Below are positions 5,348 through 17,818 of a DNA stretch of 42,180 nucleotides, piece by piece. Source of the DNA: a virus. The notes below the pieces were generated by a model. It saw only the letters and a list, made by a program, of their open reading frames with translations. It was not told where the DNA came from and ran no database searches. Both the position numbers and the translations under genes were made by a program. The stretch covers positions 1 to 42,180 of IMG/VR virus record IMGVR_UViG_3300045988_015372; one strand, given 5' to 3'. Position 1 is the first letter of the stretch. Every line of letters begins with the position of its first letter.

Positions 5348-8300
5348 ATGGCAAAGTGGAAACGGAGCGGCGCGGATGCTCTGCGGGAATATGAACAGTC
5401 CAGCAACTATGTCGGAAGCATCGGCGTAACACCACTGAATGAAAGAAGCACGTCTGAGGCCGGAGGAAAGTGGAAGCGGAGCGGGGCTGACGCGCTGCGC
5501 GAATATGAGCAGTCCAGCAGCTTCCCGCAGACCCTTCAGGTGCGGAAATATAACGCGGAAGATCGGAACTATGACCAGTTCGCGGCTGAAAGGTACTCCG
5601 CGCAGGTGAACGCGCAGCGCCGTGACACGAACCGGCACTATCAGGAACAGGTCAACGCAGCGGCACAGGCTTTTGACAATTACCGCCGTTACAGTTCGTC
5701 CGGAGCGGCCAAGAACGCGGCACATCAGAACTATGAAGATGCAAAGTACCGGCAGGAACTCGCCCGGCAGCAGATGAGCGGGAGGCGGCTGACAGAAAGC
5801 GAGAAACATTTTCTGGAGAACCCGCGAAACATTGACCCGGACAGAGCGGCACGGGAAGAAGCGGCGAAGGAGCGTGCCTCCCTGCCGAAGCTGGAGAACG
5901 AAACAGAGGAAATGCGGCGGCAGCAGATCCTGGGCAGGCAGTCCGAAGACCTCCAGAAGCAGATCGACGCGCTGACGCAGCAGGAAGAGGAACGGCGCAA
6001 GAACACCAGCCTGTGGGAGAAGATCGGGCGCGCACTCTCCCCGATCCGCTCGTTCCGGCAGGAAGAGAACGACGCAGAGGATGCTATTTCCAAACTACAG
6101 GAGCGGAAAGCCGAAGTCGACCGGCAGTATCAGATGGACGCGAACCAGTACAAGGTCTATCAGACATATCAGAAATCGGAGCGTCCGGAAGCGTACACAG
6201 CGGAGAATGTCGGAAATTACAAGCAGCGTCTGGCGGCACTGGCGAGCGTCTACGGGACGTGGACAAAGGAGCAGGAGCAGGAGGCGAAGGAAGCCATTGG
6301 AACGCAGAGCGGCGGGACGGGACTTCTGAGTGCAGAGAAAAACGTCTGGGCGTTTGCGCCGTATCAGGAAGCCGTGCGCAAAAACGACACGGAATCTGCC
6401 CGGCAGTGGGAGCAGATCTACAACGCACTCTATACGCGGCTTTACTCCGGACAGGAAGCTGTCACAAGTGGCCTGATGCAGGGCCTTGGATTTGAGGCGC
6501 TTGGAGACGTGCTGCTTCATACCTCCACGGAAATGGCGGACGAGGCGTATGAGAGATGGGCGGAGCAGAAGCAGAACTACGCCTATGCGCAGTCGGAACA
6601 CCCGTATCTTGCGAGCGGCGCGCGCGTTGCCGGTTCTCTGGCGCTGATGAGCGGCGTCGGCAAAGCGGCGGGCGCGGGGTTGGCTGCGACGGGATTGAAG
6701 ACCGGCAGCTTCTGGTTCAACGTGGCGCGCGGATCGCTGACGTTTGCGGGTGTAAACGCGATCCAGAATTCCGGTGCGCTGGCGACCGGGAACATCAGCG
6801 GCGGCGATTATTTGAAGAGCATCGCTGTGAGCGGCGCACAGGGCGCAGCGGGCAACATCGCGGGTGAGCTTGTCGGATCTGGACTTGCTACCGTGCTTCG
6901 CAAGAACGGCCTCATGACGCCGTTCTTCGAGTTCGTGCGTCAGACGGCCAGCAGCATGAGCAATGCGACGGTCAACCAGGCAATCGGATACGCGGCGGCG
7001 GACAAAAAGCCGACCGGGCAGGAGATCGCCGAAGGGCTTGTGACGTCCTTCCTGTTCAGCGCACTCAGCAGCGCGATTTCGACCTATGAGACGACGAACG
7101 CGCAGAAAGCGCGGATGCAGCAAGCCTATAACCAGATCGAGGCCAGCTATCAGGCGATGGCGGCGGGGACGGAGAACATGACGCCGGAGGCAAAGGCCCA
7201 GCGCGTGCAGCTCATTCTACAGCAGACGCAGAACCTCCGCGCGGCGACGGGCGAATATTACATCGCGGGCCAGCAGAAGGCCGTCAACAACCTCAACTCT
7301 GCGCTGGATGCGATTGAGGATTGGGCAAACAACTATCTGAATGGCTATCAGGCGGCAGCCGACGCCATGCAGCCCAAGACCGCGCTTCCGGGCGGCACGA
7401 CCGGACAGATCCCGAGTGCGCCGGCACAGCCTCCGGTCGACCCGAATCTGACGCAGGATGTCGCAAACGGCCTTCAGACCGCGATCACGCAGGGCGTGAT
7501 TCAGGCGGACACGCCGCAGCCCATGACGGGCGGAGACGCAGCGGCGGGCGCGGCACAGTCTGTAAGTCAGAATCTTCAGGCGCGGGGGCTGGACGCAAAA
7601 ACTGCGGATGCACTTGTGAAAGCGGCGACGGAAATGCAACAGGAGGCCGCGTCTGCGCCGTCAGGCTGGCAGAACGCCGCTCCCACGGAAACGGTCGCCC
7701 CGAAGCAGAACGCCGCGCAGACGCCCGCACAGGACGCGCAGGAAAGCACCGCCGTGAACACGAACCCGGCAGAGCACACAAAGGCGGAACAGGCCGTGAT
7801 CGAAGCATACAAGGCCAGTGCAGATGGGCAAATGCGCGGGTTCATCGAGAAGGTGCGCTCCCTGCAAAACAACGACTACAAAAATAAAATCAGCGCGGAC
7901 GTTCACACAGAAACGACACGCGCTGCGGACACCGCCGGAGAGCTGACCGGAACAGATACAAGCGGATTCAAAAATATCATCAAGGGGAACGCGGTACAGC
8001 ACATCGACAGGCGGCACGGTGCAAACGGAAGCGCAGATCATTCAATGGCAAACATTGATGATTTTTCTCGCATTGGGTTTGTACTGGACAACTTTACCGA
8101 TGCGGAGCTTTTACCGTTGAATCGCGTGGATGCGGAGACTGCAAAGCTGAGCCGGGAATGGATGAACAGCGACAACACGCAAGCGCCGCTTGTACGTTTC
8201 TCCATGCCGGTGAACGGTGTGTTCTATGTGGTCGAAGCGGTACCGTCCAGTAAGGCAAAGCGTCTGGCCGTCGTATCGGCGTACATCAGCAGGGAAAACA

Positions 8301-11300
8301 AAGAGAGCACCCTCAAGCAAGTGCTGAACCTGTCTGACACGACCGGCAGCGGTACGCCCGAAACGCCCCTTGCAATATTGGATGCTCCTGAAAAAAGCTT
8401 AGCACAAAACGGCGGAACTGTCAAGCAGACGGACGCGAGCACATTGTCTTCGATGGCGCAGACGCTTGGGAAGAGCGGGCAGAAAGCGATCTTCAAGGCA
8501 TACGACAGCAAGGCGGACACGGCGGAATACGCCGGGGAGTTTGTGAAGGTCTACAATGCGGCACGTGCCGGGAATGACCTTCCCGAGACGAAGACGTTAG
8601 AACCGTGGCAGAAGTACGCGGCGGAAACCGCCGGAAAGAATGACGCTGAAAAGGTTGAATCTATTGCGAAGAGCGAAAAACCGGCGTATACTGAGGACAA
8701 AAACAGCGTGCAATATGTCTCTTCCCTGCTTGAAAGCGTGAACACGGCCAACACGGACAATTACCGCTTCCGGATTCAGGATCGCGGTGACGGACAGTGG
8801 ATCGGGACGATCACGGGAAGGACGGAGACGGCCGGCACTGTTCCCGTGGAAAACGCACGGAAGCTGACATACACAAGTCCTACATATGCTTCGCGGCAGG
8901 AAGCTGTTGAAGACATTCTTGCGGTAGCTGGAAATAACAAACTTTTGACAGGAGGAACGAGCAATGAAATACAGAGCGTTTCTGACAGACAGGGAGTACC
9001 AGAGTCTTCCGTATCCGGGACAGGTGACGGCGGACTACTGGGCGGAGTTTCTGCCGAAGATGTGCAAAAGCCTGAAGGAGGAAGGCGAGCTGCTCCCGCT
9101 GTTGCAGCAGAAGGGGGAACGGCTGGCCGAGATGCAGGAAGACCTGATGAAACAGGGGCTGGCACAGGATCAGGCGTGGGAGTTCGTGAAGGAGGACATT
9201 TACAGCCTGCAACCGGAAGTGGACGAGGACACCGAGGCGTACAAGGAACGTCTCGAAGAGGAACTCCGGTATCAGTGGTTCATGTCACAGAGCGGGGCGG
9301 AGCGGGAGATTCCGTTCGAACAGTATCGGAAGAACCCGGAGAACATCGCACGGGCGAAGGAAATGATGGCGTACTGACGCCGGAAACGGCAAAGAAGCCA
9401 AGCGCAGACCTTTCGGCGACGGTTCAGCGGGAGATCAGGGAGAAGACGGCGGATTCCGTATCTCCGAAGGGCACGAACTACGTCATTCCGGAAGAGGGCC
9501 TGAAGCTGCCGAACGGCGAAAAGGCCCGCTATAAATCCAATGTTGCAGCCATTCAGACGCTTCGTGCGGTGATGAGCGAAAACCGTATGGCGACGCCGGA
9601 GGAACAGGCGGTGCTTGCGCGGTATGTTGGATGGGGCGGAATTCCGAACGCCTTTGACAGCCACAAGGAAGATTGGGCAAAGGAGTACCGGCAACTGAAG
9701 GGATTGCTCAGCGAATCGGAATGGAAAGCCGCGATGCAGTCCACGACGAACGCGCATTTCACGTCTGTGGAAGTGATCCGCGCGATGTATCACGGGCTTG
9801 AATCGCTTGGCTTTACGGGTGGCCGTGTGCTGGAACCGTCGTGCGGCGTCGGCAATTTTGCCGGGGCCATGCCCGCTTCCCTTTTGCCGAATGTGAAAAG
9901 CCTGACGATGGTGGAACTGGATGAAGTGACCGGCAACATTGCAAAGGCGCTTTATCCGAACGCGAAGGTCATGGTTCAGGGATTTGAAACGGCGGTGATC
10001 CCGGACAACTACATGGATCTCGCCATTGGCAATGTGCCGTTCGGGAACTATGCGATCTTCGACAAAGCCTATCCAAAGGCCGTGACAAACTCCATTCACA
10101 ACTATTTCTTCGCAAAGTCCATTGATAAGGTGCGTCCGGGCGGCGTACTGTGCTTTATCACGTCGCGCTATACGATGGATGCAAGAGACAGCTCCGTGCG
10201 CGAGTACATGATGCAGCGGGCCGACCTGCTCGGCGCGATCCGTCTGCCGGACACTGCGTTCAAGGCCAATGCCGGAACGGACGTTGTGACGGATATTCTG
10301 GTGTTTAAGAAGCGCCCGGCCGGAACAGCATACGCCGGAGAGACATTCCGTGACGTGGACTATTATCATCAGGATAAGGGCATTTGGGAGCAGACGAACG
10401 GATATTTCCGGAACCATCCGGAAATGGTGCTCGGCACGGTAGAGAAGTCTGGGACGATGTATCGCGCGAACGGACTGACCGTGAAAGCGAAGCCGGGAAA
10501 CCTCGGGAAGCAGATCGAAAAAGCGTTCTCGCAGATCACCGGACGCATGGACTACACGGCGAATCCGACGCAGGCCGAAATTCAGGCGGAAGTCCGCAAA
10601 GAAATCCGCTCGGCCAAGAGCAAGGCGAAGAACGGAAGTTTTGTTTCTGAGGGCGGAAAGCTGTATCAGAATCAGGACGGCGAGCTGGTGCGGCTGGATC
10701 TGAGCGCAAAACAGGCGGAAGTGCTTCAGAGCGCGATCTCTCTTCGGGATACCGGACGGGAACTGCTGGCCCTTCAATTTGACAACGCCCCGGCGGAGCA
10801 GATCGAGGCAGCGCGGGCAAAACTGAATGAAGTGTACGATAATTTCGTACAGAAAAACGGCCCAATGAACAATCCGGCAAACAAAAAAATCATCCAGCAG
10901 GATGCGGATGCGCCGTTCATCCTTGCGCTGGAAAACTATGACGCGAAAGCCAAGACAGCGGAAAAGGCCGCGATCTTTACGAAGAACACCATTACGCCAC
11001 ATGAGATCGTGAGCCACGTTGACACGGCTGCGGACGGCATTGCGGCGTCGATCAACGAGACGGGCGGCGTGGATATTCCGATGATTGCACGGCTTATGGG
11101 AACGGACGAGAAGGCCGTGGAGCGGCAGCTTGCGGCGCAGGGTCTGGCCTATAAGCAGGCGGACGAGAGCTGGCAGCCGGCGCAGATGTATCTTTCCGGC
11201 AACGTTCGGGCAAAGCTGAAAGAGGCGCGCGGTCTGGCGAACATCGACCCGGCGTATGAGACAAACGTAAAGGCGCTGGAGAAGGTCGTCCCGGCGGATA

Positions 11301-14300
11301 TTCCTGCACAGGATATTTCCGTCCGGCCGGGCGCGACGTGGATTCCACCGCGTGTATATGCTGATTTTGCCGCTGAAATCCTCGGCAGCAGGAATAGCGG
11401 CAGGAGAAGCGCAATCGATGTGACGTACAGCCCGATCACGGGGACATACAAGGTGGACTATGGAGCAAGCGGGAGATATCTTCGCGGAAACTCGGCGGAC
11501 TCCACAGAATATGGCGCAGAGGGAAAGACCTTTGTGCAGATTTTTGAAGCGGCGCTCAACAGCAAGGATCTCAAGGTCTACTATCCGCACGGCAAGGACG
11601 AGAAAGCCGTATTGAATCCAAAGGCGACGATTGCCGTCAAGGAAAAGAAGAACAAGATCCTTTCAAAATTCCAGGAATGGATGTGGAGCGACGAGAACCG
11701 GATCAAAGAATATGGGCCGCTTTACAATGATCTCTTCAACTGTATGGCGATTCCGAATTATGACGGCTCGGAGCTGAAGATCGACGGCCTGTCCGCAGGC
11801 TTTACGCTGCGGGAGCATCAGGCAAATGCGGTGCAGCGGATCATCATGTCCGGCGGCAATACGCTCCTTGCGCATGGAACCGGCGCGGGCAAGACGCTTG
11901 AAATGGCCTCGGCGGCAATGAAGCTGCGGCAGATCGGCGCTGTAAAAAAGCCGATGATCATTGTCCCAAAGAATTTGCTTGGACAGTGGGAGAGGGAGTT
12001 TAGAAGCTACTACCCGGCGGCGAAGCTGCTGGTTCCGGCAGAAAATGACTTCACCCCGGCCAACCGGAAAACCTTCGCGAATAAGGTCGCGACCGGGGAT
12101 TATGATGCGGTCATCATCACATATGAGCATTTTGAACGGATTCCGCTCTCCAAACAAGCGCAGGCGAGGTATTATCAGGAACAGGTCGACCAGATCATTG
12201 CAGCGCAGGAGGAGGCCAAGAAACAGCAGACCGGAAAAAACTTCACGGTGAAGCAGCTGGCGAAAAAGCGTGCAGAGCTGGAAGCGAAGATCAAAGGTCT
12301 CAGTGATGTGGCACGGGACGAGGACAACATTGATTTCGAAAGTCTCGGCGTGGACAGCCTGTTCGTAGACGAGGCGCACAACTTCAAAAACCTGTTCTAT
12401 ACGACGCAGATGTCTGACGTGGCGGATCTTGGAAATAAGAACGGCAGCAAGCGCGCGAGCGACCTTTATATGAAGGTGCGCTATCTGCAAGGGTTGAACG
12501 GCGGACGTGGTGTCGTGTTTGGGACGGCAACGCCTGTTATGAACTCTGTGGTTGAAATGTATGCCATGCAGAGCTATTTGCAGGGCGATCTTCTGAAGCA
12601 GAAGGGCATCAACAGCTTTGACGCATGGGCCAGCGAGTTTGGCGAAGTGGTCGACATTAACAAGATGAAGGCCGGCGGAGACGGTTATGAGACGAAGCAG
12701 TCCATGAGCCGGTATCGGAACCTCGGCGAATTGCAGCAGCTTTTCCGCAGCTTTGCCGATGTTGTGACGCAGGCGCCGGGGTTGAAGCTGCCGAAAGTCA
12801 GAACCGGTGGCCCCATTGTGGTGGAGTGCGACCCTTCCAAGGCACAGACGGAATATCTCAGCGAGATCGGCAAGCGAGCTGACAATATCCGCACAGGCCG
12901 TGTGGACGTGAAGGACGACAACATCCTGAAGGTCTACGGCGACGGGAAAAAAATGAGCTACACGCAGCGCATGATCGACCCGAAGCTCGGCTACGAAGAG
13001 GGCGGCAAGATTCTGAAATGCGTGGACAATGTGCTCAAAGAATACCGGGCCAGCGAAGGGAACCGAGGAACGCAGCTTATTTTCTGTGATCGTGGCGTCC
13101 CTGGCGGGCAGGACGAAAAGAACGGCATTTTCCTTTATCGTGACATCAAAGATCTGCTGGTCAAGGGCGGAATTCCGGAGAATGAGATCGCGTATGCACA
13201 GAGCTACAAGACGGACAACGCGAAATCAAAAATGCAGGAGATGGTCAACGACGGAACGATCCGCGTCCTCATCGGTTCGACGCAGGCGATGGGAACCGGC
13301 CTGAACATTCAGAAACGAGCCGTGGCCATGCATGAGCTGAACGCGCCAGACCGCCCCGGCGACATTGAACAGAACCGGGGGAGAATTGTCCGTCAGGGAA
13401 ACACGAACCCGGAAGTGTCGATCTACACCTACATCACGAAGAAAACCTTTGACAGCCGTCAATGGGACAACCTGAAGCGCAAGGGCGCGTTCATCCATCA
13501 GATCATTGCGGGCGATTACAACGGAAGAACCGCAGACGGCGACGGCGACTTCTCCGCCAGCGCAGCGGAAATCGCGGCGATTGCGTCGGACAACCCACTG
13601 ATTCTGGAACAGAACGAAATCTCGCAGAAAATAAACCGGCTGGAAGCTCTTGCATCTTCGCACATCAAGGAAGTGCAGGAGGCTAAGCGGAAGGTGATGG
13701 AGCTGCCGCAGACCATCGGGCGGTTTGAAACGATCCGCGGCAATTTGAAAGCCGACATTTCTGCACGGCAGGATTCCGGCGGCGATAAGTTCCGCGCAAC
13801 CATTCTTGGACGGAATTACAAGAAGCGTGCAGATGCGGGCGAGGCGATCAATCAGGCGGTTTCCTCGAGAATCGATATGACGGCGGAGGCAAGCAGCGCG
13901 AAAATCGGCGAATTTGCCGGATTCGACGTGTATGCGGACAACCACGGCGGCGCGTATCTGCAAGGCTCCGGCACGTATTCGTTCGCTGTCAACCGGGACA
14001 GCGTTGAAGGCACGGTACGTTCGATGGAAAATGTGCTGAAAACGTTTGAAGGGCGATTGGAGCAGACGGAGCGCAGCTTGTCCGACCGAAAGAACGATCT
14101 TACAAAGTATGAGCAGATTGCAAAGTCTCCTTTTGAACAGCAGAAGGAGCTTGACAATCTCCGCGCCAGAGAAGACGAGATCATGTCGATCCTGAATCCG
14201 AAGGATGAACAGGGCACATTCGTTGCGGACGATGGGGTGGAAAAGCTGGTGGAACGTTCGGCCGGAGACGCCGCAGCGGATCACAGCGCGGAATGGACGG

Positions 14301-17300
14301 CGACGCGCGTCGGAGACGAGAAGCAGACCCCGAAACCCCTGAGTGAGATCATCGCCGGGATCGAGCATAATTTCGGGATCAACATTACGACCGGGCACGC
14401 GCGGGGCAGAGTGCGCGGGCAGTATTCCAAGCTGGACAACGGCATCCGCACGAAGATCACAAACGATCTGCCGACCATCTCTCATGAGCTGGGACACGCG
14501 CTGAACCGCGAATACGGATTTACCGGGAAACTGACCGACGCAATGCGCAGCGAACTGAAAAACGGTCTCGGGGATCTGAAGGACGAATATAAGCAGAGCA
14601 AATGGATTAGCGAAGGACTTGCGGAATTCCTCCGGAAGTATCTGCAAAACTCCGAAACGGCGGCGATTGATTATCCGGAATTCACAAAGCATTTTCTGAA
14701 CAGCCTTTCTCAGCGAGACAGGGCGCTTGTGGAAAACCTCGCAGATGAAGTCAATGCCTATTATTCGCTCGACGCGGACACGGCGCAGAGCGCGATCCGG
14801 TTGAGAGAAGATCGTGTGCCGACGGGCGACACGACCGGCGACAAGCTCAGAGCGGAAGCGAGTGTGCTTTATCAGGCGTGGGTAGACAGCCTGCACGGGA
14901 TCAAGCTGCTCGACGAAGCGACCGGAACGAATACTTATCGGCTGGCGACAAACGCTGCCTATTCTGACGCAATGGCCGGGCAGATCATCACGGGAAATCT
15001 GACAGATGCGAATGGACAATATGTGGGGCCGGGACTGAAAGCGGCACTGCAAGGGATCAACCTGAAGAACAAGGCCGAATACCGGGCGTTTGGCGAGTAT
15101 CTTGTGGTACGGCATGGGCCGGAGCGGCTGGCGGAAGGAATGCGCGTATTTGCAGATGACCGCAAGAACTCCACGGCATTCATGAACCGGCGCGCGGCAG
15201 AGCTGGAGCAGCAATATCCGGCGTTCCACGATGCGGCAGAGCGGCTTTATGTGTTCCAAGACCAGCTCAAGGAAACGTGGCTCGTTGGAACTGGACTGAT
15301 CTCGGAAGAAACCGGCGAGGAATGGAGCAAGCGGTGGAAGCATTACGTTCCGTTCAATCGCGCCATGCCGCAGGGGCAGGGCGGCGCGAAGCGCGGATTT
15401 GCCAACCAGCAGAACCCGATCAAACGCGCCAGAGGCAGCGGCAGAGATCTTGTTCATCCTGTGGACAACATCATTTCCAACATCGTCAAGGTCGTCAATG
15501 CGGGCGTCCGCAACAACGTAATGCGCAGGATCACAGACGAGGCGCAGCGCGTGGGCGCGGATGCAGTATTCCTTGAAAAAATCCCCACGCCGATGCGCGG
15601 GACGCGCGTAAATCTCACGGGCGTGAAGAGTGACCTGATGGATCGGATTACGGAGAAGGGATGGGCGAATGCCAACGATTTTGGGGAAATTGTAGCCGAC
15701 ATTGATGATTACATGATGCAATTCCGGCGCGGGAAAGCGTTCGGAGACGTTGTTACCGTCCTGAAAAACGGCAAGCCGGAGTTCTGGAAGGTCAACGACC
15801 CCCTGCTGCTCCAATCGATCACGGAAATGTCCCCGTCAAAGGTGAATGGGCTTGTCGATGCGATTGGAAAAATGTCGCACTTCATGACCTCCAACATCAC
15901 AGGAGACAATATCATCTGGTCGATCTTCTCCAACCTTCCGCGAGATCTCGGGACGCTGATGGTCTATGCGAAAGAACCGAACCGTTTCAAACTGCTCAAA
16001 GAGATCGGCGCTTCGTATGTCAACAAGCTCAAAGGCGACAGCGCGAACCCGCTTTATCTGGAATACCTCGCAATGGGCGGCGGCAAGGCGAGCTATTACA
16101 GCACCGACCGCGACGTTGCGAAGAAAGCGCGCAAGGAGCTGGCCGGAAAGTTCACGCTCAACCCGCTGGATTGGATCTCGTATCTGGGCGATATGATCGA
16201 ACAGGGGCCGCGCTTCGCTACCTATAAGTGTCTCCGGGAACGCGGCGTTGATCCGCAGACGGCATTTTATGAAGCAATGGATGTGACAACGAATTTCCGG
16301 CGCGGCGGCGCAACGTCCAGACAGGTCAACAAGTTCGTCCCGTTCTTCAATGCCGGCGTGCAGGGCATCGACAAGCACGTCCGGTTCCTGACCGGGCAGG
16401 ATGCACCACCGGAGCAGAGAAAGCGCGTCGTTCGCAACCGCATGATCGCCTATTTTGCCGCTTCAGCTGGGATCGCGGCGCTGTTCTACCTCATCAACAA
16501 CCGTGACGAGGAAAGCAAGAAGGACTATCAGCAACTTTCCACGTACACGAAGAACAGCTATTTTTGCATCCCGATGGGCGATGGGAAATATTTTGTTATC
16601 CCGAAGCCGCGCGACCTTGCGGTTCTCACCTCTGCGATGGAATCCGGATTGGAGCTTGGCGTCGGCGGAAACAAGCACGCCTTTGATGGATTCTGGAGCT
16701 ATGCAGCGGCCAACTATCTGCCGAATGTGGCAGCCGATCTCGCGCAGGGAGATTGGAAAGGGGCACTCGGCGGACTTGGGATCGTCGGCATCGGAACGTC
16801 GATGGTTGCGAACCGCGATTTCCTCGGAAGGCCGATTGAATCCGCCGGCATGCAGTATCTTGAACCGAAAGACCGGTATAATGACCGGACGTCAAAACTG
16901 GCTTACTGGGCCGGGCAGGCGTTCAATGTCTCCCCACAGATGACGGATTATTTCTTCAATAACGTGCTCGGCGGATGGTGGAAGTATCAGAAAGCCCTGT
17001 TCCCGGTTGGAGAAGAAAATCGGGATTTGACGCTTGGCGTGAAGAACACCTACGTCAAGGACAACCAGTATTCGCAGGATCTTGTAAACTGGCTTTACGA
17101 CAAGGCGGAGAAAACGTCGCAGACTTCGAAATCCGACCCGGACAACATTTCCAAGAAGATCACGGCCAAGACGGACAGCAACATGACCACCTTCTATGGG
17201 AACTACAACAAACTCTCGAAGAGCGATACGAAGTCCACGGCGGCGCGCGGGACGCGGCAGCTGGTGCTTGATATGATCCGCGAGTATCAGAAAGCGACGG

Positions 17301-17818
17301 ACAACAAGAGCCAGACCGATGCGGAGAAGGAAGTCTATGCGATCTGCGAGGCGCACGGCGATGTGGACATTCTTCCGGGCGTGATGAATACCAGCATCAA
17401 AGATTCGGATGGCAAGGAATACACGCTGAGCGCGGTGGATTATGTGGAGTTCCAGACGGACTATCTCGGGATCTATTGGGAAAGCGTGTCTCAGACGCTG
17501 GACGGCGTGAAGGGCGACGCGCAGCGATATTCCGTATTGAAATCCGTCAAGGACGCTGCGAAGGAACAGGCGAAGGTGCGGGCGCTCAAACGGATGGGCG
17601 CAAAGACTACCACAGCTTGGGGAGATAAGTATTCCGGCGCAAGCACATACGATGTGGCATACTTCAAGGCCAACGCAGACGCAGACGGGAATGGATCGAT
17701 TTCTCAGGCGGAGGCTGAAGCGCTTCTGCGGAAGATGGATCTGACAAACGCGGAACGCGCGGATCTATGGGCCGCGACAAACAAGGCATGGGCAGAGAAG
17801 AACAATCCATTCCGATAA
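5348..17818 (+). CDS. Giant polyvalent virion protein (4156 codons as a single ORF). Coiled coils, Gly-rich hydrophobic TMP-like segment, PBECR-like nuclease region, N6-adenine MTase, SNF2 helicase, HExxH zincin-like peptidase, C-terminal EF-hand loop
   Basis: RBS AAGGAGG precedes ATG 5348. MTase motifs: LEPSCGVGNFAG (9826-9865) and DLAIGNVPFG (about 10016-10045). Helicase motifs: LAHGTGAGKT (about 11880), LFVDEAHNFKN (12360-12392) and QNRGRIVRQGN (about 13370-13400). HELGH at 14485-14499. EF-hand DADGNGSISQAE at 17678-17713. The frame is not convincingly coding between about 8950 and 9378 (see nested ORF). Confidence 0.6.
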   Translation: MAKWKRSGADALREYEQSSNYVGSIGVTPLNERSTSEAGGKWKRSGADALREYEQSSSFPQTLQVRKYNAEDRNYDQFAAERYSAQVNAQRRDTNRHYQEQVNAAAQAFDNYRRYSSSGAAKNAAHQNYEDAKYRQELARQQMSGRRLTESEKHFLENPRNIDPDRAAREEAAKERASLPKLENETEEMRRQQILGRQSEDLQKQIDALTQQEEERRKNTSLWEKIGRALSPIRSFRQEENDAEDAISKLQERKAEVDRQYQMDANQYKVYQTYQKSERPEAYTAENVGNYKQRLAALASVYGTWTKEQEQEAKEAIGTQSGGTGLLSAEKNVWAFAPYQEAVRKNDTESARQWEQIYNALYTRLYSGQEAVTSGLMQGLGFEALGDVLLHTSTEMADEAYERWAEQKQNYAYAQSEHPYLASGARVAGSLALMSGVGKAAGAGLAATGLKTGSFWFNVARGSLTFAGVNAIQNSGALATGNISGGDYLKSIAVSGAQGAAGNIAGELVGSGLATVLRKNGLMTPFFEFVRQTASSMSNATVNQAIGYAAADKKPTGQEIAEGLVTSFLFSALSSAISTYETTNAQKARMQQAYNQIEASYQAMAAGTENMTPEAKAQRVQLILQQTQNLRAATGEYYIAGQQKAVNNLNSALDAIEDWANNYLNGYQAAADAMQPKTALPGGTTGQIPSAPAQPPVDPNLTQDVANGLQTAITQGVIQADTPQPMTGGDAAAGAAQSVSQNLQARGLDAKTADALVKAATEMQQEAASAPSGWQNAAPTETVAPKQNAAQTPAQDAQESTAVNTNPAEHTKAEQAVIEAYKASADGQMRGFIEKVRSLQNNDYKNKISADVHTETTRAADTAGELTGTDTSGFKNIIKGNAVQHIDRRHGANGSADHSMANIDDFSRIGFVLDNFTDAELLPLNRVDAETAKLSREWMNSDNTQAPLVRFSMPVNGVFYVVEAVPSSKAKRLAVVSAYISRENKESTLKQVLNLSDTTGSGTPETPLAILDAPEKSLAQNGGTVKQTDASTLSSMAQTLGKSGQKAIFKAYDSKADTAEYAGEFVKVYNAARAGNDLPETKTLEPWQKYAAETAGKNDAEKVESIAKSEKPAYTEDKNSVQYVSSLLESVNTANTDNYRFRIQDRGDGQWIGTITGRTETAGTVPVENARKLTYTSPTYASRQEAVEDILAVAGNNKLLTGGTSNEIQSVSDRQGVPESSVSGTGDGGLLGGVSAEDVQKPEGGRRAAPAVAAEGGTAGRDAGRPDETGAGTGSGVGVREGGHLQPATGSGRGHRGVQGTSRRGTPVSVVHVTERGGAGDSVRTVSEEPGEHRTGEGNDGVLTPETAKKPSADLSATVQREIREKTADSVSPKGTNYVIPEEGLKLPNGEKARYKSNVAAIQTLRAVMSENRMATPEEQAVLARYVGWGGIPNAFDSHKEDWAKEYRQLKGLLSESEWKAAMQSTTNAHFTSVEVIRAMYHGLESLGFTGGRVLEPSCGVGNFAGAMPASLLPNVKSLTMVELDEVTGNIAKALYPNAKVMVQGFETAVIPDNYMDLAIGNVPFGNYAIFDKAYPKAVTNSIHNYFFAKSIDKVRPGGVLCFITSRYTMDARDSSVREYMMQRADLLGAIRLPDTAFKANAGTDVVTDILVFKKRPAGTAYAGETFRDVDYYHQDKGIWEQTNGYFRNHPEMVLGTVEKSGTMYRANGLTVKAKPGNLGKQIEKAFSQITGRMDYTANPTQAEIQAEVRKEIRSAKSKAKNGSFVSEGGKLYQNQDGELVRLDLSAKQAEVLQSAISLRDTGRELLALQFDNAPAEQIEAARAKLNEVYDNFVQKNGPMNNPANKKIIQQDADAPFILALENYDAKAKTAEKAAIFTKNTITPHEIVSHVDTAADGIAASINETGGVDIPMIARLMGTDEKAVERQLAAQGLAYKQADESWQPAQMYLSGNVRAKLKEARGLANIDPAYETNVKALEKVVPADIPAQDISVRPGATWIPPRVYADFAAEILGSRNSGRRSAIDVTYSPITGTYKVDYGASGRYLRGNSADSTEYGAEGKTFVQIFEAALNSKDLKVYYPHGKDEKAVLNPKATIAVKEKKNKILSKFQEWMWSDENRIKEYGPLYNDLFNCMAIPNYDGSELKIDGLSAGFTLREHQANAVQRIIMSGGNTLLAHGTGAGKTLEMASAAMKLRQIGAVKKPMIIVPKNLLGQWEREFRSYYPAAKLLVPAENDFTPANRKTFANKVATGDYDAVIITYEHFERIPLSKQAQARYYQEQVDQIIAAQEEAKKQQTGKNFTVKQLAKKRAELEAKIKGLSDVARDEDNIDFESLGVDSLFVDEAHNFKNLFYTTQMSDVADLGNKNGSKRASDLYMKVRYLQGLNGGRGVVFGTATPVMNSVVEMYAMQSYLQGDLLKQKGINSFDAWASEFGEVVDINKMKAGGDGYETKQSMSRYRNLGELQQLFRSFADVVTQAPGLKLPKVRTGGPIVVECDPSKAQTEYLSEIGKRADNIRTGRVDVKDDNILKVYGDGKKMSYTQRMIDPKLGYEEGGKILKCVDNVLKEYRASEGNRGTQLIFCDRGVPGGQDEKNGIFLYRDIKDLLVKGGIPENEIAYAQSYKTDNAKSKMQEMVNDGTIRVLIGSTQAMGTGLNIQKRAVAMHELNAPDRPGDIEQNRGRIVRQGNTNPEVSIYTYITKKTFDSRQWDNLKRKGAFIHQIIAGDYNGRTADGDGDFSASAAEIAAIASDNPLILEQNEISQKINRLEALASSHIKEVQEAKRKVMELPQTIGRFETIRGNLKADISARQDSGGDKFRATILGRNYKKRADAGEAINQAVSSRIDMTAEASSAKIGEFAGFDVYADNHGGAYLQGSGTYSFAVNRDSVEGTVRSMENVLKTFEGRLEQTERSLSDRKNDLTKYEQIAKSPFEQQKELDNLRAREDEIMSILNPKDEQGTFVADDGVEKLVERSAGDAAADHSAEWTATRVGDEKQTPKPLSEIIAGIEHNFGINITTGHARGRVRGQYSKLDNGIRTKITNDLPTISHELGHALNREYGFTGKLTDAMRSELKNGLGDLKDEYKQSKWISEGLAEFLRKYLQNSETAAIDYPEFTKHFLNSLSQRDRALVENLADEVNAYYSLDADTAQSAIRLREDRVPTGDTTGDKLRAEASVLYQAWVDSLHGIKLLDEATGTNTYRLATNAAYSDAMAGQIITGNLTDANGQYVGPGLKAALQGINLKNKAEYRAFGEYLVVRHGPERLAEGMRVFADDRKNSTAFMNRRAAELEQQYPAFHDAAERLYVFQDQLKETWLVGTGLISEETGEEWSKRWKHYVPFNRAMPQGQGGAKRGFANQQNPIKRARGSGRDLVHPVDNIISNIVKVVNAGVRNNVMRRITDEAQRVGADAVFLEKIPTPMRGTRVNLTGVKSDLMDRITEKGWANANDFGEIVADIDDYMMQFRRGKAFGDVVTVLKNGKPEFWKVNDPLLLQSITEMSPSKVNGLVDAIGKMSHFMTSNITGDNIIWSIFSNLPRDLGTLMVYAKEPNRFKLLKEIGASYVNKLKGDSANPLYLEYLAMGGGKASYYSTDRDVAKKARKELAGKFTLNPLDWISYLGDMIEQGPRFATYKCLRERGVDPQTAFYEAMDVTTNFRRGGATSRQVNKFVPFFNAGVQGIDKHVRFLTGQDAPPEQRKRVVRNRMIAYFAASAGIAALFYLINNRDEESKKDYQQLSTYTKNSYFCIPMGDGKYFVIPKPRDLAVLTSAMESGLELGVGGNKHAFDGFWSYAAANYLPNVAADLAQGDWKGALGGLGIVGIGTSMVANRDFLGRPIESAGMQYLEPKDRYNDRTSKLAYWAGQAFNVSPQMTDYFFNNVLGGWWKYQKALFPVGEENRDLTLGVKNTYVKDNQYSQDLVNWLYDKAEKTSQTSKSDPDNISKKITAKTDSNMTTFYGNYNKLSKSDTKSTAARGTRQLVLDMIREYQKATDNKSQTDAEKEVYAICEAHGDVDILPGVMNTSIKDSDGKEYTLSAVDYVEFQTDYLGIYWESVSQTLDGVKGDAQRYSVLKSVKDAAKEQAKVRALKRMGAKTTTAWGDKYSGASTYDVAYFKANADADGNGSISQAEAEALLRKMDLTNAERADLWAATNKAWAEKNNPFR
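8964..9377 (+). CDS. Alternative-frame ORF (137 aa) nested in the linker of the giant gene; acidic helical hypothetical protein
   Basis: In-frame stop TGA at 8946, then GGAGGA RBS and ATG 8964. Third codon positions are GC-rich like real genes here. Across the same span the giant-ORF frame translates to a G/R-rich string with AT-rich third positions. Confidence 0.5.
   Translation: MKYRAFLTDREYQSLPYPGQVTADYWAEFLPKMCKSLKEEGELLPLLQQKGERLAEMQEDLMKQGLAQDQAWEFVKEDIYSLQPEVDEDTEAYKERLEEELRYQWFMSQSGAEREIPFEQYRKNPENIARAKEMMAY

Follow-up and report, generated by a model that had tools for sequence, protein, structure and literature searches.

A TnpV-like gene nested out of frame in the linker of a giant polyvalent phage gene, with counterparts in plasmids and ICE-type elements

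The classical pairs of phage genes nested out of frame are Rz/Rz1 of lambda, and E within D and B within A of phiX174. In each pair the inner gene lies wholly inside the outer one, on the same strand, in a different frame and with its own ribosome-binding site. Here we describe a locus of the same geometry in IMG/VR virus record IMGVR_UViG_3300045988_015372, of which positions 1 to 42,180 (the window, 42,180 nucleotides, nt) were analyzed, and which comes from a temperate tailed phage of the gut. The outer gene is a giant open reading frame (ORF) at 5348-17818 and the inner gene, at 8964-9377, codes for a TnpV-like protein of 137 amino acids (aa). The product of the giant ORF is a polyvalent, DarB-like protein, with several unrelated effector or enzymatic domains in one phage polypeptide. 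Polyvalent proteins, including the DarB-like methyltransferase-helicase of P1, were described by Iyer et al. 2017 (PMC5512222), and the present protein shares with them a giant multi-domain ORF carried by a phage as well as methyltransferase, SNF2 helicase, LPD38, nuclease-like and peptidase-motif modules that are shuffled between relatives. Going by the family description in that paper, in which autoproteolytic release is also discussed, the giant protein would be packaged in the virion and delivered with the DNA.

An original prediction, made from the letters of the window and its ORFs, had placed the 137-aa gene inside a linker of the giant gene and offered three readings: an overprinted gene nested in the linker, separate genes with a stop-free stretch arising by chance, or an assembly or indel artefact. 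We find it quite likely, from the way the sequence has evolved, that 8964-9377 codes for two proteins, with an independently initiated inner gene and an overprinted linker of the giant protein. An injected polyvalent protein and an independently initiated small protein would then share one DNA segment.

Two reading frames over one segment

The features of the locus are as follows.

5348-17818, plus strand: giant polyvalent ORF of 12,471 nt and 4156 aa, the outer gene, stop-free across the nested gene
8684-8963, plus strand: C-terminal end of the upstream module (...SRQEAVEDILAVAGNN), which precedes the nested gene in most phage-type relatives
8946-8948, plus strand: TGA that closes the small frame upstream of its start, read from the sequence
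8950-8955, plus strand: Shine-Dalgarno (SD) sequence GGAGGA of the nested gene, 8 nt before the ATG, encoding Gly-Gly in the giant frame
8964-9377, plus strand: nested TnpV-like gene of 414 nt and 137 aa, with an ATG start and a TGA stop at 9375-9377
8966-9376, plus strand: giant frame over the nested gene, the putative overprinted linker, rich in Gly, Val, Arg, Ser and Glu, without aromatic residues, unconstrained in sequence and stop-free
9377-9460, plus strand: N-terminal lead-in of the methyltransferase module, where purifying selection on the giant frame resumes

Two ORFs in different frames thus occupy the same bases of the same strand. Each giant-frame codon begins 1 nt before a small-frame codon, placing the giant frame at -1 relative to the small one. 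The nested ORF with its upstream TGA, GGAGGA and ATG is present just as predicted, and ORF calls agree that the giant frame is free of stops over the 414 nt. The predicted contrast in third codon positions is also borne out. The small frame has 79 G, 28 C, 19 A and 11 T at its third positions, or 78% GC (GC3), where the gene average in the window is 73%, whereas in the giant frame the same bases give A62, T31, G22 and C22, or 32% GC3. Translated, the linker contains 24% Gly, 12% Val and 9.5% Arg and lacks F, Y, W, M and C altogether.

This frame structure is not peculiar to the window. Fourteen distinct haplotypes, taken from IMG/VR uncultivated viral genomes (UViGs), ENA and Logan assemblies and a Clostridiales metagenome-assembled genome (GTDB), share the 414-nt ORF, both stops, the start and an uninterrupted giant frame, with zero indels. 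The start codon is ATG in all except L004, which has GTG, and GGAGGA is kept in 13 of the 14, the remaining haplotype (L018) having GGGGGA.

To compare selection between the frames, the ratio of nonsynonymous to synonymous substitution rates (dN/dS) was calculated for the window against relatives at 87-93% identity (L005, L020 and L017-19). Inside the overlap the ratio is 0.23 in the small frame (range across comparisons, 0.23-0.37) and 1.45 in the giant frame (1.0-1.5), the latter resembling the non-coding third frame (1.1-1.2). Outside it, the giant frame has a dN/dS of 0.105 upstream (5906-8963) and 0.063 downstream (9377-10456), with a value of 0.18 already in 9377-9460, and the change in selection is abrupt at both borders. 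In a sliding scan of 5348-15374, only in the overlap did giant-frame dN/dS rise above 0.8 with more than a handful of substitutions behind it; two steps of the scan at 11168-11407 barely pass that value, on 5-8 substitutions. No further nested gene was detected by the scan over 5348-15374, the part of the giant ORF that relatives cover (they do not extend to 15375-17818). The inner gene is selected for its amino-acid sequence, while the outer frame is selected only against stops. We also looked for the pattern that the original prediction had named as contrary to nesting, a conserved Gly/Arg-rich frame with stops in the alternative frame, and found the opposite, with purifying selection acting on the 137-aa frame and not on the giant-frame linker.

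Selection against stops can be seen in the codon choice of the inner gene. A stop in the giant register requires a T at the third position of a small-gene codon that is followed by a codon beginning with AA, AG or GA. Because the stops depend on T-ending inner codons, synonymous choice in the inner gene can avoid every one of them. When the synonymous codons of the small ORF were resampled with the codon usage of the window, keeping the amino acids fixed, 1.2% of 20,000 trials gave a giant frame free of stops, with a mean of 3.8 stops expected, and none gave a stop-free third (+1) frame. The -1 register is therefore the sole compatible one, since only there can stops be removed synonymously. 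In the window gene, T-ending codons occupy 0 of the 26 stop-creating positions at which a T-ending synonym is available, as opposed to 11 of 57 positions elsewhere (Fisher p = 0.015). Among the 14 haplotypes, the stop-creating positions are variable in 2 of 24 cases versus 17 of 49 for the others (p = 0.022). Each of the two frames shows a selection signature that the other does not explain.

The small protein and its nested relatives

The small protein appears to be a conserved, distant relative of TnpV. A hidden Markov model (HMM) search of 1.84 billion representatives at E<1e-3 returned 95 clusters, nearly all of them stand-alone proteins of 75-250 aa; the sole long homologue, a 1107-aa protein, gave a weak partial match. 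An AlphaFold (AF2) model built on a 28-sequence alignment is all-helical with a mean predicted local distance difference test (pLDDT) score of 95.3, which agrees with the helical product of the original prediction and supersedes a first model from a shallow 7-sequence alignment (pLDDT 66). Nine of the 28 family members match TnpV (Pfam PF14198), which transposons of the Tn4451 type encode, with a best E of 9.6e-6, and hhalign of the family to bona fide TnpV gives a probability of 52% and an E of 1.5e-4 over 39 aligned columns containing a G..W/L..P...G.L core. The protein shares with TnpV its small size (110-140 aa), an all-helical nature and an association with mobile elements of Bacillota, as well as the nested position and register, N-terminal to the methyltransferase module, that TnpV has in giant genes of plasmids and of the type found in integrative and conjugative elements (ICEs). 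It differs in having an additional C-terminal extension of ~50 aa.

Other searches with the small protein were less informative. Sequence searches of Pfam, NCBIfam and PDB returned nothing specific, the PDB matches being designed helical repeats whose likeness reflects composition only. Foldseek against PDB and a viral library gave no significant match except the BFVD fragment Q8W6J4_2 (probability 0.99, E 0.09). With PG0816 of Porphyromonas gingivalis (PDB 2apl), an uncharacterised helical protein, the identity is only 16% and a relationship is not established. As a separate observation, PHROG phrog_938 ('endolysin', 2185 positions) matches 10 of the 28 TnpV-like proteins, with a best E of 6e-16, at its C-terminal end (profile positions 2094-2162); either the domain is in frame in some phages or the PHROG family includes mis-called read-throughs.

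Nesting recurs across the phage relatives. A sister lineage at ~60% identity, with ORFs of 91 or 89 aa, has the same ORF and SD in the same register between varied flanking modules. Upstream there is a '...AVNDLLSVARNN' module or other sequences, and downstream either a methyltransferase module (L007-9) or an ADP-ribosyltransferase (ART) module (L010, L022 and L023). Of these, L009, L022 and L023 have an uninterrupted long frame. Distant homologues at 38-53% identity (L024, L025, L026 and L028) repeat the layout. In L024 the module that follows is a HExxH domain. In L025 an ART module follows the TnpV-like ORF, and another, Cys-rich ORF is nested between that module and the methyltransferase. 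L028 (4081 nt) has a long frame without a stop. The upstream module seen at 8684-8963 in the window, with the motif …REEA[VL]xDL[LV]xVAxxN…, precedes the nested ORF in L005-9, L022, L024 and L025. Each nested ORF in the relatives has a GGAGG-type or related purine-rich (AGG/GGA) SD-like motif before its ATG, the weakest being AAGGAA and GGGAG. In L024, positions 540-722 hold a second nested small ORF of 60 aa, with its own SD and ATG, directly after the TnpV-like ORF, and the long frame is open across both.

The Cys-rich gene (CxxC...KCKAFPxGIP) is unrelated to the TnpV-like one and is nested in the same register, with an ART module on one side and a methyltransferase module on the other. In L011 and L012 the position before the methyltransferase module holds only this ORF. 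Its copies are the following.

L011, 261-512: nested Cys-rich gene
L012, 672-827: nested Cys-rich gene
L025, 1325-1540: nested Cys-rich gene
L039, 3310-3555: free-standing copy of the Cys-rich gene

The free-standing copy is 78% identical and adjoins GP3_package, HicAB and ToxN genes. A 3' remnant of the Cys-rich gene (ILYEPVDPNLTTAPPYAKNKIK*) follows the TnpV-like ORF in L007-9. With the register constant between different upstream and downstream modules, the comparison shows a nested ORF and linker that are shuffled as one cassette.

The arrangement extends beyond phages. In ICE-type homologues, stretches rich in R, G, D, E and S often precede the methyltransferase module and end in a '...LQLDLF'-like motif (P0013, P0014, P0050 and P0103). 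P0050, the single case checked at the DNA level, lies on an ICE-type contig (L029) and is an ArdC-like-linker-methyltransferase protein; its stretch is the out-of-frame reading of a TnpV gene, a canonical TnpV ORF (130 bits against PF14198) overlapping the linker in the same register with an SD and ATG. When this TnpV was used in a tblastn search of PLSDB, the matches were of two kinds, falling either under annotated 'TnpV protein' genes or inside 'SNF2-related protein' genes. Plasmids of Virgibacillus (NZ_CP033047), C. botulinum (NZ_KJ776581) and B. cereus (pBFI_3, NZ_CP009640), designated L030-L032, carry nested TnpV in the same register with intact SD and ATG, and these ORFs are bona fide TnpV (62-86 bits against PF14198). 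In Monoglobus NZ_OY725736 (L034) and Cohnella NZ_CP051681 (L037), an ArdC-like-linker-...-methyltransferase long frame is open through TnpV, identified in these two by tblastn similarity and the RefSeq annotation 'TnpV protein' rather than by PF14198 score. As judged from these comparisons, the arrangement is old, being shared by phages, ICE-type elements and plasmids of Bacillota.

Two observations on existing records belong here. For the plasmids of B. cereus, C. botulinum and Virgibacillus, RefSeq keeps the giant gene and omits TnpV. For the other two it keeps TnpV, and the giant ORF is either begun further downstream (Monoglobus) or unlisted (Cohnella), the PLSDB gene table being incomplete. 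Streptococcus suis ICEs have been reported to receive TnpV-carrying integrative and mobilizable elements (IMEs) that integrate into the snf2 gene (PMC9815147), and their point of insertion might fall within or next to a nested tnpV like those reported here.

Stop avoidance is repeated in these relatives. In a pool of 11 ORFs, consisting of the window ORF and ten from relatives (some closely related to each other, and three Cys-rich rather than TnpV-like), T-ending codons occupy 0 of 224 stop-creating positions, where ~41 would be expected from codon usage, compared to 87 of 460 other positions. For the 91-aa forms, a long frame without stops has a probability of 0.09-0.12; the corresponding values are 0.0075 and 0.047 for the ORFs of L024, 0.011 and 0.09 for those of L025, 0.004 for L011, 4e-4 for L026, 4e-3 for L028 and 1e-4 for L029. 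In the AT-rich plasmids L030-32, 10-13 stops are expected and none is seen (P<5e-5 each), and T-ending codons are found at 0 of 74 stop-creating positions as against 47 of 143 elsewhere. Four free-standing TnpV genes (L033, L035, L036 and L038), which adjoin serine recombinase, resistance or helix-turn-helix (HTH) genes, served as a control and carry 4, 4, 14 and 4 stops in that frame.

Weighing the readings

The nested, dual-coding reading draws together the frame-specific dN/dS, the avoidance of stop codons, the SD and ATG, a confident fold and a free-standing family, which together support the first of the three readings in the original prediction, the one that agrees with every test. Several points count against it. 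A single TAG interrupts the long frame inside the nested gene in three sister-lineage contigs.

L007, 443-445: in-frame TAG, CAG in sister contigs, synonymous in the small gene
L008, 384-386: in-frame TAG, CAG in sister contigs, synonymous in the small gene
L010, 345-347: in-frame TAG, CAG in sister contigs, synonymous in the small gene

These are the sole stops seen in the long frame inside nested ORFs, and they mean either that a split allele is at least transiently tolerated or that TAG is read as Gln. The Cys-rich ORF was tried as a second negative control and failed in that role, for its free-standing copy (L039-41) also lacks -1 stops, so openness alone is no proof of nesting; that copy may derive recently from a nested one. 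The link of the window protein to Pfam TnpV is weak and the assignment indirect. The protein has no match to PF14198 at E<=1 (gathering threshold, 27 bits), and given this and the hhalign probability we call it TnpV-like and not a proven member. Lastly, we infer translation of both products from sequence evolution, and what the fusion is for and what the small protein does are matters of conjecture.

The TAG contigs invite a reading in which split and fused alleles are both functional, with read-through advantageous but dispensable, or in which TAG encodes Gln in some relatives. The stops are indeed TAG where sister contigs have CAG, and the contigs that carry them come from different samples. 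Of more than 30 loci examined, however, just three have a stop of this kind, and the window, where no tRNA genes were found, has no suppressor tRNA; the L007, L008 and L010 contigs are too short to test recoding. We regard a facultative fusion of this kind as unlikely.

The locus might instead consist of three separate genes, for an upstream protein, the small protein and a methyltransferase-helicase, with the open frame a functionless accident. Gene callers used on public assemblies do give the small ORF and a separate downstream gene, the TAG in L007 and L008 would end the upstream protein inside the overlap, that in L010 comes just after the small ATG, and the giant-frame amino-acid sequence is unconstrained. 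Chance is a poor account of the openness, though. Its probability is 0.012 in the window and independently tiny in lineages at 38-60% identity, falling below 5e-5 for each AT-rich plasmid, the stop-creating codons are avoided without exception (0/224), and free-standing TnpV genes do have stops in that frame. A separate downstream gene would also need a start, yet no ATG, GTG or TTG for one occurs between the small stop and 9500. The nearest giant-frame GTG candidates, at 9062, 9176 and 9275, all lie within the small ORF; the last is the GTG with a GAGGAA motif that the original prediction had noted, correctly except for its position, which is 9275-9277 (GAGGAA at 9258-9263) rather than 9266. 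With no stop in the giant frame, ribosomes starting at 5348 must read through in any case. The chance openness offered in the original prediction is thus rejected on statistical grounds, rare single-TAG alleles in the sister lineage notwithstanding, and we consider three independent genes quite improbable.

In every instance the offset of the giant frame from the small one is exactly -1, and the small ORF could, instead of being translated on its own, be an entry point for -1 frameshifting, where ribosomes starting at 8964 slip and tag the downstream enzyme with a TnpV-like N-terminus. However, no X XXY YYZ slippery heptamer is present anywhere in 8964-9377, and -1 is also the sole register in which synonymous changes avoid stops, the +1 frame never being open in simulations. 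The long frame is moreover open right from where the small ORF begins, and it runs on without a break from conserved modules upstream, which points to read-through from upstream rather than to frameshift entry. We consider programmed slippage very improbable. An assembly or indel artefact, with compensating indels misplacing the small-ORF segment or the giant frame, is an a priori possibility for metagenomic-type data, but it is hardly credible given 14 haplotypes from independent assemblies with an identical, indel-free frame structure, the same layout in finished RefSeq plasmids, and 94 of 95 small-protein homologues that are short (54-250 aa).

Under the dual-coding reading, ribosomes loading at the SD and ATG inside the giant mRNA would translate the 137-aa TnpV-like protein. 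Ribosomes coming from 5348 would pass over the same bases 1 nt out of register and produce a Gly/Arg-rich, presumably disordered spacer of ~137 aa, joining the N-terminal modules to the DarB-like methyltransferase-SNF2 helicase part in one 4156-aa chain. Linker peptides of the giant frame would include tryptic AAPAVAAEGGTAGR and DAGRPDETGAGTGSGVGVR. We hypothesize that the modules became fused by read-through across a resident small gene, so that the linker is the overprint and the folded inner gene is ancestral, and that this gene was afterwards transferred from one polyvalent gene to another together with its overprinted linker, as a single cassette. By fusion the two halves may be kept in one chain, either to be packaged and injected jointly or to be transferred by conjugation. 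We speculate that the chain is later cut in the linker by its own HExxH peptidase motif, which is present in the giant protein as HELGH. The small protein would be made separately in the producing cell, untethered to the delivered chain, and might act there on or with the adjacent module.

The giant protein and comparison with known systems

The phage context of the locus includes genes for the large terminase, a P22-like portal, a tyrosine integrase and an amidase endolysin. Among deposited phages, nucleotide and protein similarity searches returned only weak matches to the methyltransferase region, and no protein match for the small ORF. Within the giant ORF, Pfam gives the following matches.

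7934-8305, plus strand: PBECR3-like, below cut-off
10010-10228, plus strand: Eco57I-type methylase, below cut-off
11675-12391, plus strand: SNF2/ResIII, above cut-offs
13184-13399, plus strand: Helicase_C, below cut-off
16520-17002, plus strand: LPD38, 91.8 bits, above cut-off

At the N-terminus of the giant protein, a 17-aa sequence (KWKRSGADALREYEQSS) is directly repeated, at 5354-5404 and 5468-5518. The segment at 7738-8460, which holds the PBECR3-like nuclease module, is replaced in the close relatives L004 and L017-19 by a much shorter unrelated segment; as the flanks are 95-99% identical, this points to a module swap inside the polyvalent gene.

We put forward tentatively, at somewhat less than even probability, that read-through fusion across small genes, left intact and functional, is the general way in which the giant polyvalent genes of phages, ICEs and conjugative plasmids of Bacillota are put together. 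If this is true, the R/G/D/E-rich 'linkers' before the methyltransferase in many such proteins would be out-of-frame shadows of genes of the TnpV family, the Cys-rich gene and others, giving an origin for compositionally odd linkers across a large group of anti-defence and effector proteins encoded by phages, ICEs and plasmids. The nested products would be hidden, systematically unannotated partners of the effectors that are delivered. They could be, for instance, chaperones, inhibitors or packaging adaptors, working in the donor cell and remaining there. The annotation gap is a systematic one, with either the giant gene or the nested TnpV lost from records. For TnpV, long uncharacterised, a fixed physical association with methyltransferase-helicase effectors offers a functional lead.

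In the literature searched we found no prior description of a nested TnpV or of genes nested in polyvalent proteins; coverage was incomplete and a prior account is possible. The account of polyvalent proteins in PMC5512222, which matches this locus in domain content and module shuffling, differs from ours in that its text makes no mention of linkers, overlapping genes, frameshifts or TnpV. As far as we have found, what is new is the polarity, an old inner gene with a sequence-agnostic outer linker, together with its conservation across phages, ICE-type elements and plasmids. It is in this polarity that the locus departs from the classical nested pairs of lambda and phiX174. In those pairs the inner gene arose de novo as the overprint, and each product has a function tied to its sequence. 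Here, in contrast, the inner gene is old, folded and from a broad free-standing family, and the outer reading would be the derived one, constrained only to stay open and serving as an inter-domain spacer of a multi-domain effector. The locus thus provides a clean natural system for studying overlaps that originate in the fusion of genes and not in the birth of a new one, in which a spacer is kept open by the codon choice of the gene within it.

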